DNA of 64,000 bases from Eubacteriales bacterium (GCA_045539475.1 JAZQFJ010000045.1:2024-66023); one strand, 5' to 3'; shown: positions 1 to 12,429, numbered from the stretch's first letter. Notes: generated from the letters alone by a model not told the origin. A program made the numbers and translations.

Positions 1-3000
1 TGGACATTTCTTATTTCTGTTCCTTCGCTGCTTGTGTTGTAACGTCCGGTGTCATAACCGAAGCCGTCATCAACGCCCCAGAAATATCCCTCATTCGGAA
101 CGCCGCTGTCTCCTCCGGTTTCGTAATTTTCAAGCCAACCCTGAGTTATCTTATCGCCGTAAAACGGATCCACCGCATCTGCGGCATAAAGTTCGCTGTA
201 TGTTTCGTTATAAAGATTGCCCTTCGGGTCGCCGTAGCCGTACGGGTTGTCCTTCGCCCATTCAAACACCACATACTCGCCTTTTTCATTTCTCTCGCCG
301 CGTCCGCAGAGAATACCGTTTTCTTCTCTTGCAAGCGTGTAGTCAAACTCGCCATGTTCATCCAATCCAAGCTCATAGTATGCACCAAAGTCGTTTGACG
401 GGAACAGGCGCTTACAATCCGGGCACTGAATCTTCCACGGGCGGTTTATCGCATCTATCTTCCATGCGTATTTGCCGTACTTGTAGTTAAGGTCAACTCC
501 GCAGTAGAAGCAGCGCCAGACAAGCGGGTCTTTCGTTTCTACAAGATCGAATGCACGCGGCAGCGTATGCGCGGTTATCATATTATATATGTAATCATAA
601 TGCGGCAGATACTTATCCGCTTCTTCAACTGCCGCTTCTGCAGTATCCTTTGCCCAATCGTAAAGCTCAATGTTCTCACGTGCGGCTTTGATTTTCTTCT
701 CCGTATAATACGTCCGGTCAGTCTTTCCGTCACGCACGGAAATTATTATACTTTCGCTTCGTGAAACCCCATCAATTGTTACCGTTGCCTCGATTTCTGC
801 AACGCCGGTATCAACCGGAGTTACGAAGCCTTTTTCATCAACGGTAACTACGCTTTCATCCGACGATACATAGCTTAAGGCACCGTCCGGAACGGTAAGC
901 GCCGCTCCGTTGTTGTCGTATGCACAGACAGAAAGCTTTATTCCTTCACTGCTCTTCTTCAGAACCTGCGTTGCAGAGGTAAGCTCAAGGCTTGCAAAGC
1001 CTTCGCTGAGAACATTGAGCGGGATATAGTCTGAATAATAAGTGGCTCCTCCAAAGGTTACCTTTGCCCTTACCGTTGTAGAGGCAGCCTTCACGCCTGT
1101 TATCTTTTCTTCTGAACTTACCGCAATTTCCGTATCAGCAACCTCAAACTCAACAGAAATATCCTCTGCCTTGATTTCGCTTCCGTTTGTAAGATATGCT
1201 TTTACGACAGGAGAAACAGATCCTGAAACAAAGATGTCATACTGTGGTTCTGTAAATTCTATTCTGTCAAGCGTTTGCTCATTTACGGTAATCTCAATGC
1301 TTTTGCTTACCGCCTCGGCACCTTTTACATATGCCGTTGCCGTTATTGTTGCCGTTCCCGGTGCCACGGCAACAAGCTTTTCACCGGATATTTTTACGAT
1401 GCTGTCATCCGAGCTTTCAAGAGCAAGGTTATTTTCCGCATCCTTCACGGTTTCCTTATCTCCGTGCTTTGCGCCGAAGACATAGCTTCGTCCGCCTGCC
1501 ATAACCACACCCGGGGTAAGAGAGGTGCTTTCACCTGCCGCAATAGAAGCCTTTTCGGCGAAAAGCTCTATAGACTCTATTCCGCCAAGCCCCTCAACAT
1601 ATGAAAGCGAGAGGTATGCAGGAATCATATAAGCATAGCTTCCCTCAGGGCTTAAGCTCATTGCTCGCATCGTGAAGGTATGCACACCTTCTGTAAGATA
1701 CACGGTGTTAAGTGATTTGAGCGTATTGTAGTTTCTGTTTGTGGACATATCCGTCCAGAAGCAGAAATCACCCATAAACGCACCGTCCATATAGAGGTTT
1801 GCGTTGTTTGCACCTCGGTAGTACTGAGTTCCGAGGAAATCGAGCTCATACCATCCGTCATAATCTACCTGAATATCTATCGCAAGGTCTGCATTTTGCG
1901 TCTGTCCGACTTTCGTAATCTGAGCCTGCGTTCCCTGCGTGAAGCAGCGAAGCTTTGAATTTGCCGGTCCGGAGAGGATGTTTGCGCTCTCATCAAAGTT
2001 TACTTTCCAGCCGTATTGCTCTATCGTTACATTCGATGCAAAGCCGGTTCCGGGCTTTCTGAAATCAACAAGCTTGCTCTTCGGGGATTTCGGCTCTACC
2101 TTTACCGAAAACGGCTCGCTATTTATTGAGCTTCCGCCGCAAGTCACCGTTGCGATAACGTTTACCTTATCCTTTGCTGCAACACCGGTGATAACTCCGG
2201 TCTCAGCATTGATTGCGAGATACTGCTCATCCTCAGGATTTGCAAGTGCATAGGTCACCGTATATCTGTCGGCATTTGCAAGATCCGCCTCATTTCCGCT
2301 TTCATGCCATGCACGGACGGTAAGTGCCGTTGAGAAATCAACCTCAACGTTGTCTGCACCGATAATCGCTGCATATTCAAACGGAGTATCATCCGCAACG
2401 GCAATATGCAGCGTTCCCTTTATCTGCACACCGTCTGCCTCAACCCACACAGCAATATCTGCATTTCCCGGCCCACGGGCGGTAATGATACCGTCCTGCG
2501 AAACTGTTGCAACAGCGGTGTCGGAGCTTTCATACCAGTAAACAGAGCTTTCGCCGGTATACTCCTCTCCGTCATTGTAGAAAAGCTTATATTCCGATGT
2601 TGCGGTTTCCCCGCGGATAAACGCCGTCTTGTCAGCTGTTACCTCTGCACGGGAAAGAACCTTCTCAACTCCGCTGAATGTAACCAAAGCCGATGCCTCG
2701 CGCGTTACTCCGTTTATCGTAACCGTTGCGGTTATCTCTGCTTCTCCGTTTGATACAACGGATATAACGCCGGTTGTTTCGTCAACTGTCGCAACATTCT
2801 CATTCGATGAAGTATATTTAACCTCTTCACTGTCAAGCGCCGCGCCTATGGTTATGGGCGTTCCGGTATTTGAATAAAGAGTAAGCTTTGTTGAAAGTGT
2901 GTCGCCGTATTTCGGAGCATCAAGCTCACTTGTAAGTGAAAGCTCTGCACAGTCAAGCGCAACCTCGTGAACGGAAATATGGGACACAAATATATCCGCA

Positions 3001-4580
3001 CCCTTGCACTCTGCCGCGTTGAAGTCCATACGTGTTTCCAGACCGTAAACATCTGCATAGCCATAGTTTAAGTAAAGAGCTCCAACGTTAAATTTTGTCC
3101 AATCCTGATCGCCGGTCTTTCCTGCCCACTGGGAATCGGCGATGCTCTTTACCGTCACGCCACTTGAGGTAAGGTCATTGTAATAATAAGCTCTCATAAT
3201 TGCCGACGGCAGTGTGTTTGTGTTCTCGCTCTTTATGTAACCGCTGTATTCATAAAGCTTTCCCGCCTCTGCCTGCACAATGTTTCGCTGGTCGCTCGAG
3301 CTGTTTGCTTTGCGCTGATAGCTCTGAATTCTTATGTTGTTTGAGTTTCCCGTCGGAGCAAGCGAGAATTTCGCAATATTGGTTGTCTTGCCCGTTATCT
3401 CGGAAACAACGTCGCGCAGAAGCGTATATTCATAATTATACGTTGTAGCGTTCTTCGTTGCTTTCCAATACGAAAGCTTAGGATCAGTTATACCCGACCT
3501 ATCTGTAAGGTAAATGTCCCGTTCAAACTCACCGTGGAGTACATTCACCCATTTGTTACTTCCTTCCGGCTTTACTTGGCGTGAATTTAAGATATTTGCA
3601 CCGATTACGTTTACCTCGCACTCCGTCGATATTTCATTCTCGCCAAGGCTTGCTGTGACGGTGATTTTTGTTCTACCCGGTGCAAGCGGCTTGAGTATTC
3701 CGTTTTTATCTACCGTTGCGATATCTTCATCATCTGATTTATAAGAAAGCTCGATATCTTCCCCAAGCGTTTTTCCGTTATCATCAGTCACGGAAATCGG
3801 ATACGTGTTGCCTACACTGAGAATTTCCGCGCCGATATCAGCTATCATGCCGGCGGGAAGGCGCACAATCTCGTCCTCAGAAACCTGCTGTCCCTCCGGA
3901 ACGATTCTCATTCCGGAAAGATACATTTCCTGACGGTACGCGGCATTCAGAGAGTCATTTACTCCGGTCGCATCAGTGGCTACTGAACCATCCACCACAT
4001 TTATTACTTTAGAATTAAGTGTAACAGAATTTAATGTTGCTGCAAAAAGAATGCAGTAATCCCCCGTTTCAAGCTCTACTGCGATTTTTTCCCCATCGGC
4101 ACTTCCATCCACCGTAACCGGCGTGTATTCCCCTGCAGTTGCCGCAGAAAAGTTGAAATAGCCGAGAAGATTGTTGTCCGTTCCGATAATCGCATTGGTG
4201 TTTGTTGCACTGTCCATTGCTGAATTATATTTTGCAATCGCAATTGCGGGTGCAATTGATGTTTCTGTTGGATTGTCCGTTTTGAAGTAGACATTATATT
4301 TGCCCGGTGTTGCCACGCTTACCTTCAGCGCAACGAACTGGCGATGCCCTGTGTTTCCGCCGGCACTATACCTCCGCACCTGTATTCCTGTCCATGAGAG
4401 AGCGAACTTGGTAGCCTCAACAGATTCCGAAGCACTGCTGCCTGTGGTTTTTGCTATAATTTGGGATATTTCAAACTTCTGCTCAACTCCCTCTGCAAAT
4501 ACAGACATTGCAGGCATGAGCGACAGCATAATCGCAAAGCTGAGCAGTAATGATAACATTCTGTTCATTTTAGTTCTCAT
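1..4580 (-). CDS. Giant secreted multidomain protein, N-terminal ~1526 codons only (3' end lies beyond window start). Contains a signal peptide, an N-terminal module shared with the 542-aa neighbour, Ig-like repeats and the start of a heparinase II/III-like lyase region. Paralog of 47945..56395.
   Basis: Absent from the ORF track because it runs off the window. My minus-strand translation from ATG 4580 (RBS GGAAGGAG) begins MRTKMNRMLSLLLSFAIMLSLMPAMSVFAEG. The frame was stop-free where I spot-checked it (about 3000-3120, 1740-1800, 600-660, 1-20). Near 380-480 it encodes RPWKIQCPDCKRLFPSNDFGAYYELG, matching RPWKVQCPDCKRLFPSNDFGSFYKLG in the 2827-aa ORF. All track ORFs inside 1..4580 are short shadow frames. 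Confidence 0.8.
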   Translation of the reverse strand, partial: MRTKMNRMLSLLLSFAIMLSLMPAMSVFAEGVEQKFEISQIIAKTTGSSASESVEATKFALSWTGIQVRRYSAGGNTGHRQFVALKVSVATPGKYNVYFKTDNPTETSIAPAIAIAKYNSAMDSATNTNAIIGTDNNLLGYFNFSAATAGEYTPVTVDGSADGEKIAVELETGDYCILFAATLNSVTLNSKVINVVDGSVATDATGVNDSLNAAYRQEMYLSGMRIVPEGQQVSEDEIVRLPAGMIADIGAEILSVGNTYPISVTDDNGKTLGEDIELSYKSDDEDIATVDKNGILKPLAPGRTKITVTASLGENEISTECEVNVIGANILNSRQVKPEGSNKWVNVLHGEFERDIYLTDRSGITDPKLSYWKATKNATTYNYEYTLLRDVVSEITGKTTNIAKFSLAPTGNSNNIRIQSYQRKANSSSDQRNIVQAEAGKLYEYSGYIKSENTNTLPSAIMRAYYYNDLTSSGVTVKSIADSQWAGKTGDQDWTKFNVGALYLNYGYADVYGLETRMDFNAAECKGADIFVSHISVHEVALDCAELSLTSELDAPKYGDTLSTKLTLYSNTGTPITIGAALDSEEVKYTSSNENVATVDETTGVISVVSNGEAEITATVTINGVTREASALVTFSGVEKVLSRAEVTADKTAFIRGETATSEYKLFYNDGEEYTGESSVYWYESSDTAVATVSQDGIITARGPGNADIAVWVEADGVQIKGTLHIAVADDTPFEYAAIIGADNVEVDFSTALTVRAWHESGNEADLANADRYTVTYALANPEDEQYLAINAETGVITGVAAKDKVNVIATVTCGGSSINSEPFSVKVEPKSPKSKLVDFRKPGTGFASNVTIEQYGWKVNFDESANILSGPANSKLRCFTQGTQAQITKVGQTQNADLAIDIQVDYDGWYELDFLGTQYYRGANNANLYMDGAFMGDFCFWTDMSTNRNYNTLKSLNTVYLTEGVHTFTMRAMSLSPEGSYAYMIPAYLSLSYVEGLGGIESIELFAEKASIAAGESTSLTPGVVMAGGRSYVFGAKHGDKETVKDAENNLALESSDDSIVKISGEKLVAVAPGTATITATAYVKGAEAVSKSIEITVNEQTLDRIEFTEPQYDIFVSGSVSPVVKAYLTNGSEIKAEDISVEFEVADTEIAVSSEEKITGVKAASTTVRAKVTFGGATYYSDYIPLNVLSEGFASLELTSATQVLKKSSEGIKLSVCAYDNNGAALTVPDGALSYVSSDESVVTVDEKGFVTPVDTGVAEIEATVTIDGVSRSESIIISVRDGKTDRTYYTEKKIKAARENIELYDWAKDTAEAAVEEADKYLPHYDYIYNMITAHTLPRAFDLVETKDPLVWRCFYCGVDLNYKYGKYAWKIDAINRPWKIQCPDCKRLFPSNDFGAYYELGLDEHGEFDYTLAREENGILCGRGERNEKGEYVVFEWAKDNPYGYGDPKGNLYNETYSELYAADAVDPFYGDKITQGWLENYETGGDSGVPNEGYFWGVDDGFGYDTGRYNTSSEGTEIRNV
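3910..4500 (-). repeat. Copy 1 of a ~600-nt direct repeat (approximate ends) encoding the shared N-terminal module of the two tandem paralogs
   Basis: Long near-identical runs are visible by eye against 5617-6205, for example ggaaagatacatttcctg...cattcagagagtcatttactccggtcgcatcagtggctactgaaccatccaccacatttattactttagaattaagtgtaacagaatttaatgttgctgcaaaaagaatgcagta. Confidence 0.85.
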
Positions 4581-4645
4581 ACGCAATTCTCCTTCCTGGA
4601 TTATAAAAGGGAGGGTGAACACCGTCCATCCTCCCCTGGTGTGTG

Positions 4646-6274
4646 TTAGTTATTCTTTTCGTATTCGCCGTCGGTGATTAGGGTATACGCACTTTCGTTT
4701 CTCAAAATTGCATAACCGACATATGTTCCTTTTTCATCCGCAATAACGCTGAACTGTGTGCCCGGCTTTGTCATAGCAATTCTCGTTGTGTTACTTTCAC
4801 TGTCTGTAAACATAATGCCCTTTTCAACTGCATCTTCAAGACCGATAAACTCTGCCATAACACCGGTTACGCCTGCAGCTACATCAAATGCGTCGATGAT
4901 TATCTTCATCTTGCTGCCGGTGTAATAGTGGTCTTCGTATTCTGCAGTTACTGTGCACTCTTCCCACGCCTTGAAGCTGTATGTTGAATCACAGCTTACA
5001 ATTTCTGTCTCACCGTTTATACCGGTCTTTGTCCAGCACTTGAATACACCTGTGGCGTTTGCTGTGCAGATAACTGTGTCACCGTAAGCATACAAACCTG
5101 TGCCGGTACCACCGGTTACGGTTATACCGATATTCTTTTCCGGTTCATCAAGGTCATAATGTGCAACATAGATGTTTGTTTCGCCGTAGCGGTCCCAGCC
5201 AGTTGATGTGCCGTAGCCTGCCATCGAAACTCTTGTTTCCTGATTTGCCCCGGGAATAAGCTGACCGTTTGCATTGTAGTATTCCGTTCCGGAAACTTCA
5301 TCAGCATATACCGGGATAAGATAATTTGCATACTTTGAATCCGGAGCATAGTTTTTAAGCTCGTTGGTCTCGCCGATAAGAATTCTCTTCTGTGTGGTAA
5401 GCCCCTTTGCCCAATAGAGGAATTTTGCACCGTTTTTATTTATTTCCGGAGCTGTGATGTTATGCGTTCCGTCAGCGTTCTTAACTGATTTAATCTCGCT
5501 GCCGTCTTTTGAAATAGTTATTACGGCCGGTTCGTTGTAGTTTTCCTCCGGAACACTGCCGTCAAGCTCAAATGCCGCGACGAGCTCTTCATCTTCCTCT
5601 ACCGGAACAAGCTTTATTCCGGAAAGATACATTTCCTGCTGATACGCGGCATTCAGAGAGTCATTTACTCCGGTCGCATCAGTGGCTACTGAACCATCCA
5701 CCACATTTATTACTTTAGAATTAAGTGTAACAGAATTTAATGTTGCTGCAAAAAGAATGCAGTATTCTCCCACTTCAAGGTCTGCTACGATTTTTTCTCC
5801 ATCAGCACTTCCATTCTTCGTGACCGGAGCATATTCCCCTGCAGGTGCCGCAGAAAAGTTGAAGTAACCGAGAAGCTTGTCGTCCGTTCCGATAATCGCA
5901 TTGGTGTTTGTTGCACTGTCCATTGCTGAATTATATTTTGCAATCGCAATTGCGGGTGCAATTGATGTTGCCTCAGGATTGTCGGTCTTAAAGTAGACAT
6001 TATATATGCCCGGTGTTGCCACGCTTGCCTTCAGCGCAACGAACTGGCGATGTGATGAGTTTCCGCCGGCACTATATCTCCGCACCTGTATGCCTGTCCA
6101 TGAGAGAACGGAATCGGTAATCTCAACAGATTCCGAAGCACTGCTGCCTGTGGTTTTTGCTATAATTTGGGATATCACAAGCTCCTGCTCGGTTGCCTCT
6201 CCCGTTGCGAAGACTGACGGGATGAGAGAGAGCATAATCGCCGCCGCAAGGATAATTGATAATATTTTTTTCAT
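4646..6274 (-). CDS. Secreted 542-aa protein. Its N-terminal module is shared with the 1..4580 product, and its C-terminal repeats are of the Listeria/Bacteroides (YxFxGW-like) kind.
   Basis: ORF track, with an AGGAGG RBS and signal peptide MKKILSIILAAAIMLSLIPSVFA. Nucleotide repeat 5617-6205 matches 3910-4500. C-terminal motifs are AKFLYWAKG and GVFKCWTKTG. Confidence 0.8.
   Translation of the reverse strand: MKKILSIILAAAIMLSLIPSVFATGEATEQELVISQIIAKTTGSSASESVEITDSVLSWTGIQVRRYSAGGNSSHRQFVALKASVATPGIYNVYFKTDNPEATSIAPAIAIAKYNSAMDSATNTNAIIGTDDKLLGYFNFSAAPAGEYAPVTKNGSADGEKIVADLEVGEYCILFAATLNSVTLNSKVINVVDGSVATDATGVNDSLNAAYQQEMYLSGIKLVPVEEDEELVAAFELDGSVPEENYNEPAVITISKDGSEIKSVKNADGTHNITAPEINKNGAKFLYWAKGLTTQKRILIGETNELKNYAPDSKYANYLIPVYADEVSGTEYYNANGQLIPGANQETRVSMAGYGTSTGWDRYGETNIYVAHYDLDEPEKNIGITVTGGTGTGLYAYGDTVICTANATGVFKCWTKTGINGETEIVSCDSTYSFKAWEECTVTAEYEDHYYTGSKMKIIIDAFDVAAGVTGVMAEFIGLEDAVEKGIMFTDSESNTTRIAMTKPGTQFSVIADEKGTYVGYAILRNESAYTLITDGEYEKNN
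5617..6205 (-). repeat. Copy 2 of the ~600-nt direct repeat (approximate ends)
   Basis: See 3910-4500. The antisense shadow ORFs 4300..4677 and 6006..6302 also have near-identical translations (MPGVATL.FSATNWRC...). Confidence 0.85.
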
Positions 6275-6503
6275 TCTGTTTTTCCTCCTAAAAATACATT
6301 AAAAATTTTATCTATATAAAACAACCCGAGGGTTGCACAATACAATCATAACATTGCGGATAAAATATCACCCGGAAAGTTTGATTTTACTGTAATTATA
6401 CACTTAACTGAAAGCAAAATAAATACACAAATATGCGAGTTTTATACTTTTTGGTACTAAAACGCAAAATGCACACAATACACAAAGAAGTCCTGATAAA
6501 GCA

Positions 6504-6539
6504 AAAAGCAGTGAGTGGACCCGTTGTCTGCTCACTGCT
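6504..6539 (-). terminator. Hairpin plus T-run downstream of the AraC gene
   Basis: agcagtgag...ctcactgct stem, followed on the minus strand by TTTTTGC. Confidence 0.5.
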
Positions 6540-6563
6540 TTCCTATGATGAACCGTCTGTATT

Positions 6564-7367
6564 TTACTTTGAAGACTTATACCGTTGCATAAAGAGTGTC
6601 GGCGAAGTTCCAACATACTCCTTAAACTGACGACTGAAATAATATACGTTGTCGTATCCGCACATCTCAGCCACCTCGGATATTGAGTAGCGTTCGGAGC
6701 TGAGAAGATCGCAAGCGTAATTTATTTTCATCTGAATTACGTATTTTACCGGAGTTACCCCAAACTTTTTGACAAACAGCTTTTTGAGATATGACTCACT
6801 TATTCTGCACTTTTCAGCGAGCAATGGTACGGATATCTTTTTCTCCAGAAAGTTGTTCTCAATATAATTTATAGCCGGTTTTATTGCGTCATACTGGCTT
6901 TGCCTTATGTAGTTTGTTTTCTGCATTTCTGCGAAAATTTTGTAAAGCAAGGATATACACTCAAAATAGTAGCCGTCATTTTTGGAAACCCATACTGTAA
7001 AAAGCTTTTTAAATAAATTCCCAACTTTTTCCGAATTGTTGCACTTCATGACAAATGCTTCGTCGGTTACCGGAGAATCCGTATCAAAAAATATATCTAT
7101 GCACTCCGGACCGTGACCTATCTTTTGGTTTTTAACAATATACTCCCGATTTTCTCCTTTCGGCAAAAAACGAATCATATTTTCCTCAACATTCATGATT
7201 TTTCCGTTGAAACAAACCGTATTCTTTCCCGTAAAATTGTATATAAGTTCATTATGTGTGACCTGATTCTTAAAAACCACTCTTTCCTGAGGATATTCAT
7301 TTTTTCCTACAAAAACAGCTCTGGTAATTCCCGTTATAAGAAAATTATTTTTAAAATTATCACTCAT
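6564..7367 (-). CDS. AraC-family transcriptional regulator
   Basis: C-terminal double HTH: ISVPLLAEKCRISESYLKKLFVKKFGVTPVKYVIQMKINYACDLL...ISEVAEMCGYDNVYYFSRQFKEYVGTSP. I place the start at the internal ATG 7367 (MSDNFKNN) rather than the ORF-track start 7472. Divergent from the GRE gene. Confidence 0.85.
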   Translation of the reverse strand: MSDNFKNNFLITGITRAVFVGKNEYPQERVVFKNQVTHNELIYNFTGKNTVCFNGKIMNVEENMIRFLPKGENREYIVKNQKIGHGPECIDIFFDTDSPVTDEAFVMKCNNSEKVGNLFKKLFTVWVSKNDGYYFECISLLYKIFAEMQKTNYIRQSQYDAIKPAINYIENNFLEKKISVPLLAEKCRISESYLKKLFVKKFGVTPVKYVIQMKINYACDLLSSERYSISEVAEMCGYDNVYYFSRQFKEYVGTSPTLFMQRYKSSK

Positions 7368-7524
7368 AAATAACACCGCCTCAGCTATTATAATACATAA
7401 AAAGCGGCGCTGTGTCAACACACTAAAACTATTTTTTTGTACCAAAATATGCAAGTATTGTCTTTTGTGCATTTACTTCTTCTGCTATTTAAATGTATAA
7501 TCGCAACGAAAGGTGGAATACGCA

Positions 7525-9645
7525 ATGACAGAAAGAATAAAAGAGCTTACAAAATTAACGCTTGAGGGAAAAATGTATGCAAATCCCATCAAGACCGAAT
7601 TTAATAAGGAAGATATACTGTTGCCGAAGCAACAGAAAGAAGCAAAGCAGCTTTGTGAATATATTTTAAATCAGGAGCCAGTACTTACCCCATATTCAAT
7701 GATGACCGGATTCTTTAACTGCAGCAATTCCGTTGTCGGCGATGTTTTCCGCCGTATGGGACATAAAACATTCGCGGAGCTTTTCACCAGTCTTTACTTA
7801 AAGCCAATCGACAATCTCTCAACCTTTGAATGGCAGCATGCAACGGCTGATTATAAAAAAGTCCTCGAAAAAGGAATTTCTGGAATAATCGGTGAGATAG
7901 ATGATTCTCTTAAGGTACATACGGATCCGAATGAGACAGAATTCTTAAATGCACTGAAATCCGTCGCCCACGCGCTCATCAGCTGGGCACACAAATGTGC
8001 AGACCGCGCGCTCGCGCTTTCGAAAACGGTTGGTAATTGCGAATACAAAGAAAATCTTGAAAAGCTTTCAGAAACGTTATACAGAGTTCCCGAAAACGCA
8101 CCTTCTTCCTTTTACGAAGCCGTGCTTACAATATATCTCTGCTTTTCCGCAGATCCGGACAGCATTGGAACACCTGACCGTTATCTTACGCCATTTTATG
8201 AAAGCGACATAAAAAACGGAGTGATAACAAGAGACGGTGCTAAAGAAATACTTCAGGAGCTGTTTTTAATGCTTCAGGCAGCAACCCACGTGACATCAGC
8301 GTGGTTTACAAGAGGCGGCGAATCCCACTTCTGCATCGGCGGATACCTCCCGAATGGCGAGGATGGGTTCAATGACCTTTCACGCCTTATTCTCGAAGGC
8401 TTAATGGAGCTTCCCACATGGATACCACAGGTAACTCTTCGCTGGACAAAAAAGATGCCGAAGGAAGACTTCCGATTCGTACTTAACTGCGAACGGAATG
8501 ACCCCAACAAGAGAATTGCTTTCCAAAACGACGAAAAGCGCATAAAATGCTATACCGAAATATGCGGCTTCCCGTTTGAAAAAGCGGTAGGATATACTAC
8601 CGTAGGATGTAACGAACCGGCATTTCAGGGCGCAGTTACCGGCAGCACCTCAGCGGTAAATTTTGCCCGTTCAACAGAAACCGTTTTCTACAAAAAGAGC
8701 GATGAAATCCTGAATGCAAAAACGTTTGATGATTTCTATAATGTTTTTATTACTGAATTGCTTTCGGATATTGACGTTGCCTGCGACTATGATGATAAAT
8801 ACAACCTCAAGCGCGCGGAGGATATCAACTATTTATCCTCTCTTTTCTTTGACGGCTGTATCGAAAAGGCAAAAAGTGCAACGCAAGGCCCCGGCACTTT
8901 CGCTATCGCATCCATTTTTTATATCGGAATAACAAATGTAATAGATTCACTTATCATAACAAAGCAGTTCGTATTCGATGAAAAGCTTGTTACGATGCAA
9001 GAGCTTGTTTCCGCACTCCGCGCTGACTGGCAAGGATATGAAGAGCTTCACGCCACTATTCTGAAAAAGGGTGACTTTTTCGGCAATGACACCGAACGCT
9101 CAAATTATATTGCACAAAAGCTTTTCCAAAACCTTTACGAGCATCTGAAAGATAAAACAAATCTTTTCGGTTACCACTGGCTTATCGGCGATCTTACAGG
9201 ATATCGCGATCATCCGAAATTGTTCGGTAAAAAAACAAAAGCCACGCCGGACGGAAGATATTCAGGCGATTCTCTCAAATTCGGCTTCGGTCAGAGCGAG
9301 GGCAAAGATCGGAACGGGCTCTCCGCGCTTTTAAATTCAATTGCAAAAGCCGATCCCAATGCAATCGGCTGCGGTTCAACTGTCACCAACATAATGATAG
9401 ATGAGCAGTTGATAAAAAATGACGAGTATTTTGAGAAAACCGTTGATATGCTTGAAACGTACTTCAAAAACGGCGGTGTACATTTTCAGCTTACTTATGT
9501 ATCAAAAGAGGACCTTCTCAACGCAAAAGTTACACCGGATAATTACAAAAACCTGCGCGTTCGCGTTTCTGGCTTTGCCGATTACTTCGTAAAGCTGAGC
9601 GATACTCTGCAAGACGATATCATCGAAAGAACAATGCAAAAATGA
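7525..9645 (+). CDS. Glycyl radical enzyme (PFL2/dehydratase-like class), unusually short at about 706 aa
   Basis: C-terminal glycyl-radical fingerprint NLRVRVSGFADYFVKL. Cys-loop TTVGCNEPAFQG (GC-x-E-P as in GRE 1,2-eliminases). RBS AAAGGTGGA sits before ATG 7525; the ORF track starts at GTG 7513. Confidence 0.9.
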   Translation: MTERIKELTKLTLEGKMYANPIKTEFNKEDILLPKQQKEAKQLCEYILNQEPVLTPYSMMTGFFNCSNSVVGDVFRRMGHKTFAELFTSLYLKPIDNLSTFEWQHATADYKKVLEKGISGIIGEIDDSLKVHTDPNETEFLNALKSVAHALISWAHKCADRALALSKTVGNCEYKENLEKLSETLYRVPENAPSSFYEAVLTIYLCFSADPDSIGTPDRYLTPFYESDIKNGVITRDGAKEILQELFLMLQAATHVTSAWFTRGGESHFCIGGYLPNGEDGFNDLSRLILEGLMELPTWIPQVTLRWTKKMPKEDFRFVLNCERNDPNKRIAFQNDEKRIKCYTEICGFPFEKAVGYTTVGCNEPAFQGAVTGSTSAVNFARSTETVFYKKSDEILNAKTFDDFYNVFITELLSDIDVACDYDDKYNLKRAEDINYLSSLFFDGCIEKAKSATQGPGTFAIASIFYIGITNVIDSLIITKQFVFDEKLVTMQELVSALRADWQGYEELHATILKKGDFFGNDTERSNYIAQKLFQNLYEHLKDKTNLFGYHWLIGDLTGYRDHPKLFGKKTKATPDGRYSGDSLKFGFGQSEGKDRNGLSALLNSIAKADPNAIGCGSTVTNIMIDEQLIKNDEYFEKTVDMLETYFKNGGVHFQLTYVSKEDLLNAKVTPDNYKNLRVRVSGFADYFVKLSDTLQDDIIERTMQK

Positions 9646-10385
9646 AACTGAGAAATGATAAAATAATTGTTTTCGGTGGCGGAGGAGGCATTGGTTCTGC
9701 CATTGCAAAACGCTTTTGCGATGCCGGAGCAAAAGTTTTGATTGCAGGCAGAAGTGAAGCTTCGCTTAAAAAGGTTGCCGATGAAATCGACAGCAGGAAT
9801 TTGTTTTACAAGACATTCGACATCTCAAAGGTTGATGAACATATTTCTTTTTTCGACGAAGCTGAAGCTCTTCTTGGCGAGATTAGCGGATTTGTAAACT
9901 CTGCCGCTCTCGGAAGCAAGAGAGGATATGAACCGTGGGATATAACGAGCGCTGAATGGGATGCCATGTCAGACATAAACTTCAAAGCAGCATTCTTTTT
10001 AATGCGCAATGAGGTTGACTATATGCTTAAAAAAGGCATACGGGGAAATATCCTGAATCTTTCTTCCAATGCCGCATGTATGGATATCACAGGTAGCTAC
10101 GGTGCATCAAAGGAAGCAATCGTCAAATGGACAAGAGCGTTCGGGAAAAGATTCGGTCACAAAGGAATTATCATAAACGGAATTGCTCCGGGTGCGACGT
10201 TCACTCCCATGATTTTCGATTATGCACACGATATCAACCAAAAGTATGAACGCCACGCGATTGAGCGCTTTATCCGCCCCGACGAGATCGCAGAGCTTGC
10301 TTTTTATCTCATGAGCGACTATGGCGAAATAATCTGCGGTCATACGGTTGTTGCTGATGGCGGCGATAATGTGGCGACATTATAA
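9642..10385 (+). CDS. Short-chain dehydrogenase/reductase (SDR)
   Basis: Gly-rich NAD(P) motif VFGGGGGIGSAIA and catalytic S...YGASK (YxxxK). ATGA overlap with the GRE stop suggests translational coupling. Confidence 0.9.
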   Translation: MKLRNDKIIVFGGGGGIGSAIAKRFCDAGAKVLIAGRSEASLKKVADEIDSRNLFYKTFDISKVDEHISFFDEAEALLGEISGFVNSAALGSKRGYEPWDITSAEWDAMSDINFKAAFFLMRNEVDYMLKKGIRGNILNLSSNAACMDITGSYGASKEAIVKWTRAFGKRFGHKGIIINGIAPGATFTPMIFDYAHDINQKYERHAIERFIRPDEIAELAFYLMSDYGEIICGHTVVADGGDNVATL

Positions 10386-10452
10386 AAAACCTAATTTGTA
10401 TCTGTATAACTCACGAATTATAAAATAAATTTTCCTTTTAGGAGCTACATTT

Positions 10453-11592
10453 ATGTTTGAAAATTTAAAAAAGTTTTGCGACTCATTTTTAGAAATTGAT
10501 GTTCCCGGGTTTGATTTGGCGGTTTATAAAGACGGTGAGTGTATCCTACGGCATATGAACGGCTACAGCGACCTTGAAAACAAAATCAAAATGAACGGAA
10601 AAGAAAAATACAATATTTATTCCTGCTCAAAGGTTATAACCTGTACTGCAGCCTTGCAGTTATGGGAAAAAGGATTGTTTTCACTTGAGGACAAGCTTTC
10701 CGACTATATGCCCGAGTTTAAGGAAATGACGATCAAAACAGAGGGTGGCATCAAAAAAGCCGAGAACCCGATTTTAATAAAACACTTGTTCGAAATGACA
10801 GCAGGCTTTTCCTACAACTGTTCTTCACCGCAATTAAAGAAGGCTTTTGACGAAACGGCCGGTAGGTGCCCTACCCGTGAAGTAATGAAATATTTGGCAA
10901 AAGAGCCGTTGCTTTTTGAACCGGGCGACAGGTGGTTGTATAGCTTATGCCACGATGTTTTGGCAGCTTTTGTCGAAGTGGTTTCGGGTGAGAAATTTGA
11001 AGCCTATGTCAAAAAGAATATTTTTGATGTTTTGGGAATGAATGATTCTACGTTTATGCTACCCGAATCGGAAATTGAAACAATTGCACCGCAATACAAA
11101 TTTAAAGACGGTAAAGCGATCAATATCGGAAGACCTATATCTAACTATAAAATAGGCACTGAATACGCGTCAGGCGGCGCAGGTGGAATTTCTACCGTAG
11201 ACGATTATATGAAATTTTTGGAAGCGATTCGTACCCATAAACTGATAAAGTCTGAAACGCTGAAATTGATGATGACTGACCGTTTAAGCTCTCATCAAAA
11301 ACGCACCTATGAGGCAAAAAACACCCACGGCTACGGCTTGGGCGTGCGTTGTCCAATGGGTGACAAACGGTATATTGATTTCGGTTGGGGCGGTGCTGCA
11401 GGCGCATTTTGGGCTATTGATGTTGAAAATGCCATTTCCCTTTATTTCGGTATGCATTTATTGTCTTCTCCCTCCCAGGGGTTGCGTTCCATGCTTTATC
11501 TCTTCGTAAGAACAGAGCTGTTTGATAACAGCGAGTTTGATGATTTGTATAAAGATTTAAAAGAATTACACGATTATAATTTAACCTATTAA
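10453..11592 (+). CDS. Serine hydrolase of the beta-lactamase/transpeptidase-like fold
   Basis: SxxK motif in YNIYSCSKVIT, size 379 aa, no signal peptide, AGGAG RBS. Confidence 0.8.
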   Translation: MFENLKKFCDSFLEIDVPGFDLAVYKDGECILRHMNGYSDLENKIKMNGKEKYNIYSCSKVITCTAALQLWEKGLFSLEDKLSDYMPEFKEMTIKTEGGIKKAENPILIKHLFEMTAGFSYNCSSPQLKKAFDETAGRCPTREVMKYLAKEPLLFEPGDRWLYSLCHDVLAAFVEVVSGEKFEAYVKKNIFDVLGMNDSTFMLPESEIETIAPQYKFKDGKAINIGRPISNYKIGTEYASGGAGGISTVDDYMKFLEAIRTHKLIKSETLKLMMTDRLSSHQKRTYEAKNTHGYGLGVRCPMGDKRYIDFGWGGAAGAFWAIDVENAISLYFGMHLLSSPSQGLRSMLYLFVRTELFDNSEFDDLYKDLKELHDYNLTY

Positions 11593-11604
11593 CGGAGAGA
11601 AACT

Positions 11605-12429
11605 ATGTCTGTTTCCACAATATTTGATATACAAAGAAATTCATTTGTTGACGGGCCCGGCATCCGCACGACTGTGTTTTTCAAAGGTTGTAACTTAAGA
11701 TGCAGATGGTGTCACAATCCCGAAAGCCGGAATTTTGAAAAAGAAATATTGTTTTATCAAAACAAATGTACCGGTTGCGGAAGATGCAAGGAGATAACTG
11801 CCGACAACATAGACTTTATTTGCTTTAGCGATGCAAAGGAAATCTGTGGAAAAGAATATACCGTTGACGAAGTTTTCGGCGAAATAATCAAAGATAAAAC
11901 TTTTTATGAAACATCAGGCGGCGGTGTAACATTTTCCGGTGGAGAATGTATGCTGCAGATTGATTTTCTCACCGAAATACTCAAAAAATGCAAGGATACC
12001 GGCATCCATACGGCTATTGATACTGCAGGGCATATATCTTGGGAAAGCTTTGAAAAAATTCTTCCGTACACCGACTTGTTTTTATATGACATCAAAACTA
12101 TGGATGAAAAAAAACACAAGGAATATACAGGCGTCACAAACAGGCTTATACTTGAAAACATCAAAAATCTTCTCAAAACCGGAGCGGATATATGGGTAAG
12201 AGTCCCGGTAATTCCCGGTTTCAATGATAACGAAGAAGAAATGAGAAGCATCCGTTCTTTCTTTGAAAAGAACGGATATCCGAAAAAAATCGAGCTTCTT
12301 CCCTACCACGCGATGGGCGAACACAAATATACGGCACTGGGCGAAGAAGTTCATCACTTCGCCGTTCCAAACAAAGAAAAGATCGATGAACTGAATGCTG
12401 TTTTCTATGCCCATCGGCATAATTCATAA
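11605..12429 (+). CDS. Glycyl-radical-enzyme activating enzyme (radical SAM)
   Basis: CNLRCRWCHNPE (Cx3Cx2C), ferredoxin-like CTGCGRC, and GGVTFSGGE SAM-binding motif. Confidence 0.9.
   Translation: MSVSTIFDIQRNSFVDGPGIRTTVFFKGCNLRCRWCHNPESRNFEKEILFYQNKCTGCGRCKEITADNIDFICFSDAKEICGKEYTVDEVFGEIIKDKTFYETSGGGVTFSGGECMLQIDFLTEILKKCKDTGIHTAIDTAGHISWESFEKILPYTDLFLYDIKTMDEKKHKEYTGVTNRLILENIKNLLKTGADIWVRVPVIPGFNDNEEEMRSIRSFFEKNGYPKKIELLPYHAMGEHKYTALGEEVHHFAVPNKEKIDELNAVFYAHRHNS

Follow-up and report, generated by a model that had tools for sequence, protein, structure and literature searches.

A gene cluster built around an oxygen-sensitive glycyl radical enzyme (GRE) was analysed in a 64,000-nucleotide stretch of DNA from a Eubacteriales bacterium (GCA_045539475.1, JAZQFJ010000045.1:2024-66023); this whole stretch is called the window hereafter and positions are counted from its first nucleotide. 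A preliminary description of the same DNA had named, besides the GRE, a divergent AraC regulator, a short-chain dehydrogenase/reductase (SDR), a cytoplasmic serine hydrolase of beta-lactamase fold and an activase. Open reading frame (ORF) and domain scans of the window found all of these genes present and intact (Table 1). Starting from its ATG, the GRE has the length of about 706 aa that had been given for it. A Shine-Dalgarno sequence, AAAGGTGG, lies just ahead of this ATG, and the start proposed by the ORF finder, GTG 7513, falls within it. The claimed translational coupling of GRE and SDR was also found, as an ATGA overlap of stop and start codons, and the hydrolase and activase genes follow after short spacers, each with its own Shine-Dalgarno sequence.

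Table 1. Features of the GRE cluster and its immediate surroundings in the window
Feature	Position (nt)	Strand	Details
Apparently secreted protein, >1500 aa	3..4649	-	N-terminal hydrophobic leader
Apparently secreted protein, 542 aa	4646..6274	-	N-terminal hydrophobic leader
AraC-family regulator	6564..7367	-	Divergent from operon; Pfam HTH_18 3.4e-18, HTH_AraC 4e-17
Divergent control region, 157 bp, 33.8% GC	7368..7524	.	Back-to-back promoter-like sites and GRE ribosome-binding site
Promoter-like site TTGACA-17-TATTAT	7418..7390	-	Consensus match
Promoter-like site TTTACT-18-TATAAT	7472..7501	+	Consensus match
Glycyl radical enzyme (GRE), 706 aa	7525..9645	+	Pfam PFL-like 1.5e-78, Gly_radical 2.1e-18
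GRE Cys362-x-Glu364	8608..8616	+	G361-C362-N363-E364; Cys362 at 8608-8610
GRE Gly683, predicted radical site	9571..9573	+	Gly loop RVRVSGFADYF
GRE/SDR overlap, ATGA	9642..9645	+	SDR start 9642-9644, GRE stop 9643-9645
Classical SDR, 247 aa	9642..10385	+	Pfam adh_short 2.1e-38
Beta-lactamase-fold serine hydrolase, predicted cytoplasmic, 379 aa	10453..11592	+	Pfam Beta-lactamase 3.2e-55
GRE-activating radical SAM enzyme, 274 aa	11605..12429	+	TIGR02494 332 bits, Pfam Radical_SAM 4.3e-18
prmA, downstream neighbour of cluster	from 12557		ORF listing

The divergent regulator was confirmed with one correction to its start. Its ORF is open as far as 7472 (6564-7472), and the start is most likely Met36, whose codon lies at 7367, because the homologues are about 260 aa long (median about 261 aa in complete related loci) and the minus-strand promoter-like site falls inside the long ORF. 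The promoter-like sites are consensus matches only, and their total in the region was not above the shuffled expectation (17 vs 14.6), so that only the positions of the two best are informative. The cluster was also said to be AT-richer than the adjoining prmA. The difference exists (40.6 vs 47.4% GC, with 44.7% for the window), but it is slight and carries no message, since the 5 kb that follow have 38.3% GC. Horizontal transfer, considered on the ground of this AT-richness, was rejected, the composition lying within the window's own variation.

Both fingerprints reported for the GRE are present: the Gly loop RVRVSGFADYF and the Cys loop VGCNEP. Across the 69 full-length GREs of the family that were collected from loci in a species-dereplicated genome set, GCNE and RV[ST]G[FY] were invariant (69/69), and formation of a stable glycyl radical on Gly683 is predicted. 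Cys362 aligned with Cys433 of glycerol dehydratase (GD) and with the Cys-loop Cys of HpyG (Cys435 in review numbering), and the adjacent Cys-Cys pair of pyruvate formate-lyase (PFL) type was not present, VGCNE holding a single Cys. An AlphaFold (AF2) model built on an alignment of 130 diverse GREs reached a pLDDT of 93.6 and a pTM of 0.93; an earlier one from 45 close homologues (pLDDT 63, core below 50) was set aside. The retained model has the ten-stranded beta/alpha barrel of the GRE superfamily, and Foldseek related it to GD, PD, HplG, HypD and CutC with TM-scores of 0.80-0.86, 1R8W ranking first (0.85) and no one solved eliminase or isomerase standing out as its neighbour.

At the sequence level, the best solved relatives were HpyG (8ID1, the top match, 4e-60), IseG (5YMR, the second, 8.7e-59), GD (1R8W), HpzG (8IOF) and HplG (7VUA), the entries being identified via PMC13450708. 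Such matches had E-values of ~1e-55 to 1e-60 and ~30% identity, with an alignment running from ~residue 100 onward. The shortness of the enzyme lies chiefly in the region ahead of the first barrel strand, which is ~55-65 residues shorter, and a few loops are trimmed as well. Weak local matches to GRE residues 520-617 were noted for two further PDB chains, 38la_A and 38lb_A ('formate acetyltransferase', 687 and 739 aa; 5e-6 and 7e-4); they show that short GRE-like structures exist in the PDB and are not close relatives of the window GRE.

The separateness of the GRE from the characterised families was evident from curated profile scores, in agreement with what had been proposed. Every NCBIfam equivalog model (cut-offs 994-1150 bits) gave it at most 256 bits, a score obtained with the HpsG-type model of the NF048011/NF048009 pair (cut-off 1000); the other sulfonate-GRE equivalog of this pair gave 216 bits (1000), HypD (NF043068) 242 (1100), CutC (TIGR04394) 208 (1050), the arylacetate decarboxylase (HPAD and indoleacetate decarboxylase, IAD) models NF033715 and NF033718 157 and 200 (1150 and 1100), the PflD-type equivalog 192 (1109) and PFL (TIGR01255) 87.7 (994). 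The broader subfamily model TIGR01774 (PFL2/glycerol dehydratase), which we understand to cover the characterised eliminases and isomerases, gave 273 bits for a cut-off of 678. Ten uncharacterised GRE representatives of ~800 aa were scored on the same model: eight obtained 720-866 bits and two remained below the cut-off, and none of the representative GREs labelled with NCBIfam reached an equivalog cut-off. Fragments of characterised enzymes are 40-46% identical to the ~800-aa representatives, whereas the window GRE is 24-29% identical to the same proteins. Judged by these scores and identities, the family of the window GRE stands apart from the group to which the characterised eliminases and isomerases belong. 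The GRE certainly belongs to the superfamily, and it falls into none of the characterised families against which it was tested.

The family is large. A word-indexed search returned more than 120 clusters (90% identity) whose proteins, 705-722 aa long, share 74-78% identity with the window GRE, and one more at 99%, all from metagenomes or metagenome-assembled genomes (MAGs). An exhaustive search of 50%-identity representatives added full-length relatives of 702-713 aa at 53, 45, 43, 42 and 38% identity; a further 705-aa representative at 34% also aligns from residue 1, and below that level only the barrel aligns. In a neighbour-joining tree, whose leaves included no characterised enzyme except one HplG-like sequence, the clade was nested within a broader series of GREs, 700-760 aa long and likewise uncharacterised. 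The enzyme had been described as atypically short. This holds against the solved characterised GREs, which have 776 aa or more, but not within its own clade and the larger radiation, and short length is a trait of a large uncharacterised GRE radiation rather than an oddity of the window gene.

A scan of species-representative genomes yielded 80 loci. Each comes from a clostridial MAG or uncultured assembly (Acutalibacteraceae, Christensenellales and Oscillospiraceae being represented), and the record names point to the guts of humans (including Hadza), goats, sheep, deer, buffalo and rabbits. The window GRE itself had no exact match in the assembly index; the nearest record was MAG contig JAZLCV010000207 (locus L001), with a GRE 99% identical to that of the window. 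Between its secreted-protein gene and its AraC gene, at about 6000-7000, L001 carries an extra 268-aa gene that is missing from the corresponding window interval (6275-6563) and that we read by eye as a xylose-isomerase-like TIM barrel, and its AraC region is only 81% identical to that of the window over the long ORF. Because of the extra gene and the divergent AraC region, the window derives from a strain or assembly close to L001 but distinct from it.

The active site was compared residue by residue with those of characterised enzymes. The Cys-x-Glu motif of eliminases is present (C362-N-E364, with Cys362/Glu364 aligned to GD Cys433/Glu435), and His105 aligned to GD His164. Of the GD pocket set, which we take to be His164, Ser282, Asp447 and Tyr640, only the His was clearly matched: Asp447 has no acidic counterpart (Ser or a deletion, in a loop after the Cys loop that is two residues shorter), the Tyr640 position is Leu557, and the loop with GD His281-Ser282 is shortened to D210-P211-D212-S213, where the HMMER and MAFFT alignments differ. 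In the latter loop, an equivalence of Asp212 with the amine-binding Asp278 of HypD was considered and not established, the two alignments lying two residues apart. The IseG residues taken to be the sulfonate-binding Arg676 and Gln191 (numbered with an assumed offset of 20 residues between PDB chain and published sequence), correspond to Gly555 and Glu102. The Arg/Gln/Arg triad by which sulfonate GREs bind their substrate (PMC13450708) was thus not found in the window GRE. Glu102, His105, Asp212, Arg263, His268, Tyr560 and His563 are polar residues invariant in the family and may line the pocket.

It is worth noting that the Cys loop had been called eliminase-type, a label that needs tempering. 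HPAD carries a CxE loop too. The GRE isomerases YbiW, PflD and HplG also have it, so that CxE is not diagnostic of eliminases (PMC13450708).

The gene neighbourhood was surveyed in the 44 of the 80 related loci with enough flanking sequence; ORFs were called in all loci and clustered, and recurrent families were named by Pfam, NCBIfam and PDB searches. The AraC gene was found upstream of the GRE in 38 of the 44 loci and the activase in 34. An SDR adjoined the GRE in 19. The ATGA-type overlap geometry recurred in 8 related loci, and a distant subclade (49-55% GRE identity) showed a second arrangement, AraC followed by SDR-GRE-AE (AE denoting the activase), with the SDR immediately upstream of the GRE. 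SDR orthologues were 60-78% identical in close relatives and 37-41% in distant ones. The link between SDR and GRE is therefore deep and recurrent, since this distant subclade extends it to two gene orders and down to 49% GRE identity.

The hydrolases behaved differently from the SDR, and that part of the proposed association held less well. At least one accessory hydrolase was present in 21 of the 44 loci, the beta-lactamase-fold type (BLA) in 13, a protein of the phosphotriesterase (PTE) family in 12, an M20 protein of PepV type in 10 and a CapA-like protein (PGA_cap) in 3; neither SDR nor hydrolase was found in 13. The PTE-family protein is closest to phosphotriesterase-like lactonases (PLL), its best solved relatives being 314-aa aryldialkylphosphatases such as 2VC5 (~1e-41), which we take to be SsoPox. 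The M20 protein passes the model of the Sapep/PepV dipeptidase subfamily, and the sole curated relative of the CapA-like protein is the lasso-peptide epimerase MslH. These genes mostly lie between GRE and activase, that is, inside the operon, in varying combinations: GRE-SDR-BLA-AE is the order of the window and of L001, and GRE-M20-CapA-PTE-SDR-AE, GRE-SDR-PTE-M20-CapA-AE, GRE-PTE-BLA-AE and GRE-AE-BLA were seen elsewhere, among others. In these operons the hydrolases are thus facultative, and the beta-lactamase-fold one may be accompanied or supplanted by PLL-type, M20 and CapA-like ones. A remnant in L004 shows that genes are lost and rejoined at the hydrolase position of the operon. The first residues of its PTE-family ORF (5097-6056), MLSYKNEIHDYIV..., are those with which M20 proteins begin; in other loci an M20 gene occupies this operon position, e.g. 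in L009, where its product begins MLSYKKQIHNYII.... An M20 gene seems to have been deleted here, leaving its 5' end joined to the PTE gene as a scar. Two unclustered genes for beta-propeller-like proteins (L040, L063) were considered as lactonases; their Pfam matches were weak, non-specific propeller matches and they were not used as evidence.

Several loci hold more than one GRE. Two family members (54-55% and 66-69% identical to the window GRE) occur in a tandem operon GRE-AE-BLA-GRE-M20 in L027 (3960-10115) and L037 (3811-10115), and two lie side by side in L031. In many MAGs, further AraC-GRE-activase cassettes adjoin the family member (L002 1-6700, L003 1450-7490, L009 140-6910, L027 1168-2988, L040 5173-7005, L056, L057, L070, L074 10195-17364). 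Their GREs have 719-756 aa, are only 23-29% identical and carry Gly loops of RVCGW/RVCGF type; an assignment as aminoacyl radical enzymes was rejected, as all of them keep the Gly. The cassettes of L003, L009 and L074 also carry GDSL and SASA carbohydrate esterases, an SMP-30 lactonase, a PTE-family gene and an EamA transporter, an indication that uncharacterised short GREs with ester- or lactone-related partners form a wider radiation.

The three partner enzymes of the window GRE were classified individually. The SDR has the motifs of the classical type (GGGGGIG, NSAA, Ser141/142, Tyr153-x3-Lys157). Its nearest solved structures (~1e-24) are NADPH-dependent R-specific alcohol dehydrogenases, hydroxysteroid dehydrogenases, FabG, levodione reductase and glucose dehydrogenases, a profile expected of a generic secondary-alcohol/ketone oxidoreductase. 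The Gly-Arg after beta-strand 2, read with general knowledge of SDRs, suggests a preference for NADP(H).

The hydrolase has S57-C-S-K60 (SxxK), Tyr163 and W312-G-G, all invariant in 11 orthologues, and no N-terminal signal-like segment is visible in its sequence, in agreement with the cytoplasmic SxxK enzyme that had been proposed to precede the activase. Its best PDB relatives are the esterases 7PP3 and Est-Y29 and the carboxylesterases 4IVI and 1CI8 (1.8e-32 to 4e-18), the latter two being, we believe, EstU1 and EstB. With an SxxK nucleophile motif, a catalytic Tyr and WGG in place of KTG, on the beta-lactamase fold that it has in common with Est-Y29, 4IVI and 1CI8 (E-values 1e-18 to 1e-32), it is best classed as a predicted family VIII carboxylesterase. 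We know of no link between family VIII esterases and any GRE.

The activase scored well above the TIGR02494 cut-off of 174 bits and has the radical S-adenosylmethionine (SAM) motif CX3CX2C at Cys29/33/36. Its ferredoxin-like insert retains only Cys55, Cys58, Cys61 and Cys73 plus Cys80, that is, three Cys of the first motif and the last of the second, and this reduced insert is predicted to offer ligands for one auxiliary 4Fe-4S cluster rather than two. Most GRE activases carry eight extra Cys (PMC13450708). Among 43 activases of the family, the five-Cys form was found in 12 and nine Cys in 22; those of the nine-Cys form that were read had both CX2CX2CX3CP motifs. The five-Cys form was noted in the window, L002, L004, L010, L011, L013, L014, L028, L040, L041 and L053.

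Characterised PFL-like GREs fall into formate lyases, decarboxylases, X-succinate synthases, eliminases, isomerases and aminoacyl radical enzymes according to a June 2026 review, which names GD, PD, HpfG, HypD, HpyG, HpzG, CutC, IslA/IseG and HpsG as eliminases and HplG, YbiW and PflD as isomerases, and which notes that entire GRE clades are still without a function (PMC13450708). In the chemistry that eliminases and ring-opening isomerases share, a thiyl radical abstracts hydrogen at a carbinol carbon, the Glu of CxE deprotonates the hydroxyl to give a ketyl radical, and a leaving group is expelled from the neighbouring carbon; the roles of CxE and His in eliminases, with GD His164 as the proposed proton donor to the leaving hydroxyl, are given there as well (PMC13450708). 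From the observed gene content, motifs, fold, separateness from known GREs and neighbourhood conservation, we infer a reaction type, an order of steps, a cofactor preference and a role for the hydrolase. As the residues for the shared chemistry are kept, the GRE is expected to act as a 1,2-eliminase, most simply a dehydratase.

On balance we lean slightly towards an AraC-controlled operon of an uncultured gut Clostridia bacterium, probably substrate-induced, in which a hydroxylated substrate is released by hydrolysis, undergoes radical beta-elimination and has its carbonyl product reduced. As a first step, ester, lactone or amide conjugates would be cleaved to give the substrate, by the family VIII esterase in the window and by the PLL-type lactonase, PepV-type M20 and CapA-like proteins in relatives. 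The activase, using SAM, would place the radical on Gly683, from where it would move to Cys362. The Cys362 thiyl radical would take a hydrogen from the carbinol carbon of the substrate and Glu364 would deprotonate the carbinol hydroxyl, giving a ketyl radical; the leaving group on the adjacent carbon, most likely a hydroxyl protonated by His105, would then depart, and return of the hydrogen would give a carbonyl product. Reduction of this product by the co-translated SDR, probably NADPH-dependent, would make the net reaction a reductive dehydroxylation, serving as an electron sink or as a catabolic entry step. The same succession of hydrolysis, elimination and reduction had been put forward before, and it is still the most economical reading, with a conserved SDR link in its favour.

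Several observations weigh against this proposal. The 13 loci with neither SDR nor hydrolase imply that the accessory steps can be dispensed with or have their genes at other sites, the mixture of esterase/lactonase and peptidase-like types suggests no single obvious conjugate, and a conserved transporter is absent from the cluster. Residue equivalences in the remodelled loop 210-213 are ambiguous between HMMER and MAFFT. CxE and His are common to the GRE isomerases, so elimination is not told from ring-opening isomerisation, and the one pointer to NADPH as cofactor of the SDR is its Gly-Arg. The mix of hydrolases, and their variable presence among GREs that are ~65-78% identical to that of the window, would be in keeping with several conjugates being channelled towards one core molecule.

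The substrate is very probably none of the known GRE substrates, and two classes of candidate remain open. A hydroxylated amino acid or amino alcohol is suggested by the M20 dipeptidase, the CapA/MslH-like protein, the acidic loop 210-212 and the hydroxyproline enzymes among the top matches. A sugar-derived polyol, aldonate, lactone or anhydro-sugar is suggested by the lactonases and esterases, by carbohydrate genes in some flanks and by the paralogous cassettes with GDSL, SASA and SMP-30 genes. Whether the GRE handles a substrate class new to these enzymes (other than small diols, choline, hydroxyprolines, C2/C3 sulfonates and anhydrohexitol phosphates) is in our estimate evenly balanced; such a substrate would be fed by hydrolysis into a new reductive dehydroxylation or ring-opening pathway with an SDR, widespread in uncultured gut Clostridia of humans and herbivores and minimal in its parts, with a GRE of 706 aa and, for some members of the clade, an activase that carries one auxiliary cluster only.

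A different first reaction can be envisaged, in which the GRE opens a ring as the isomerases YbiW, PflD and HplG do: the ketyl radical would expel the ring O or N of a cyclic ether or amine, such as an anhydro-sugar or a cyclic hydroxy-amino acid, and the SDR would then act on the ketone. The shared CxE loop (PMC13450708) is compatible with this, as is the fact that HplG, PflD and YbiW are as near to the window GRE as the eliminases in both sequence and fold. Sugar esterases and the SMP-30 lactonase of the paralogous cassettes fit as well, and so do the carbohydrate-related genes of some flanks, of which GH123 has Pfam support and the others (a xylose-isomerase-like TIM barrel, Gfo/Idh/MocA, GH16 and GH130-like) are presumed from reading of unscanned genes. 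Loci for anhydroglycolysis, however, feature a kinase, a PTS and an aldolase, none of which is conserved in the cluster, the PflD-type equivalog score is far below its cut-off, and the sequence gives no preference for a ring leaving group over a hydroxyl. We regard such an isomerase as unlikely, while keeping it among the candidates.

Another arrangement of the steps would reverse the order. The SDR would make the substrate of the GRE by turning a keto or aldehyde group into an alcohol, as sulfoacetaldehyde reductase does ahead of isethionate sulfite-lyase, or it would oxidise a lactol to a lactone that is opened by the lactonase or esterase. SDR and lactonase form a classical pairing in oxidative sugar pathways, and PLL-type lactonase and esterase genes are recurrent in the family loci. 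The SDR-type sulfoacetaldehyde reductase IsfD offers a precedent (PMC6616044), and the SDR lies immediately upstream of the GRE in the subclade at 49-55% identity. It lies downstream, overlapping the GRE stop codon, in the window and its closer relatives, though gene order is weak evidence in both directions, and isethionate itself is an unlikely substrate with Gly555 in place of the sulfonate-binding Arg of IseG. A reversed order is therefore given little credence.

It could also be supposed that SDR and hydrolase are unrelated neighbours of an AraC-GRE-activase cassette and belong to no common pathway with it. The loci without either gene, which have only AraC, GRE and sometimes an activase, would be in line with this, and accessory content does vary among close relatives. 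Against it stand the orthologous SDRs adjoining the GRE in two arrangements, the stop/start overlap kept in 8 loci and the position of the hydrolases between GRE and activase in most loci, which make a chance association very improbable. Finally, that the GRE is a diverged orthologue of a characterised enzyme (GD/PD, HypD, CutC, IslA or an arylacetate decarboxylase) with incidental neighbours is very improbable: fold, CxE loop and His are the same and the HpsG-type and HypD equivalogs come nearest, but the scores reach no more than about a quarter of the curated cut-offs, pocket positions differ, no microcompartment genes, aldehyde dehydrogenase, P5C reductase or small subunit were found in the cluster (ORF listing and comparison of related loci; for an HPAD-type small subunit, the window ORF listing), and neighbour conservation is far above chance.

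Among known systems, GD of Clostridium butyricum (1R8W) and PD (5I2G) are the best structural match to the window GRE (TM 0.85 and 0.77). They have in common with it the CxE loop, the His aligned to His164 and a dedicated activase, and the logic of dehydration followed by NAD(P)H-dependent reduction would also be shared, each of them having a downstream alcohol dehydrogenase. Identity in the structural alignment is 22-24%, and the window GRE is ~80 residues shorter, mostly at the N-terminus. It differs besides in the pocket (Asp447, Tyr640 and the 281-282 loop) and in its TIGR01774 score, and its cluster lacks microcompartment genes, has an SDR in place of the iron alcohol dehydrogenase and adds hydrolases. 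HypD (6VXC), HpyG and HpzG are, like the window GRE, enzymes of gut Clostridia. In hydroxyproline-type systems dehydration is followed by reduction of the resulting pyrroline, and the substrate often comes from peptidases; the window has an SDR and no P5C reductase, and HypD is distant from its GRE in both identity and equivalog score. YbiW and PflD (8ID7, 8ID0) and HplG share the fold, the CxE loop and a comparable similarity, but no conserved sugar-phosphate pathway genes lie near window-type GREs. The sulfonate enzymes IslA/IseG and HpsG, near as they are in sequence match and equivalog rank, have binding residues that are not conserved in the window GRE.

Partnerships of a GRE dehydratase with a reductase have precedents, as in GD with 1,3-propanediol dehydrogenase and HypD with P5C reductase. 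To our knowledge, none of the characterised systems in the superfamily review pairs an SDR with these hydrolases. As had been stated, the gene set of the window matches no characterised GRE pathway listed in that review (PMC13450708). The dehydratase HpfG with its reductase HpfD (PMC11489063) and IsfD with IslA are further GRE-reductase partnerships. Literature searches on GREs linked to an SDR, a lactonase or an esterase gave no description of the window GRE family, and the paper on aminoacyl radical enzymes held nothing on it.

GREs perform major anaerobic reactions of the gut, including the formation of trimethylamine from choline and of sulfide precursors from taurine-derived isethionate as well as the use of hydroxyproline. 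Uncharacterised GRE clades are to be expected, and that of the window is abundant, compact and accompanied by informative partners, the conserved ones narrowing the search for a substrate. Once this substrate is identified, GRE chemistry would gain a reaction, and a metabolic trait of uncultured Clostridia abundant in the gut would be explained. A naturally minimal GRE with a one-auxiliary-cluster activase could also be useful for probing the contributions of the N-terminal region and of the ferredoxin domain.

Some further genes border the clusters. In L030, L052, L061 (about 1000-7000) and L059, a second AraC gene lies upstream of the cluster's own. In the first three of these loci it is part of a divergent block, which also encodes two BNR/sialidase-like proteins, one protein that starts with a signal-peptide-like segment and one that we read as a DHDPS/NanA-like aldolase. 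This block may be an adjacent sialic-acid-like utilisation locus, with no link to the GRE established. Upstream of the AraC gene of the window, the two tandem genes for apparently secreted proteins encode similar N-termini, with 79% identity between the first ~230 residues of the 542-aa protein and the beginning of its larger neighbour. Neither Pfam nor NCBIfam gave a match for the 542-aa protein, and a 40%-identical one is encoded at the equivalent place in L001.

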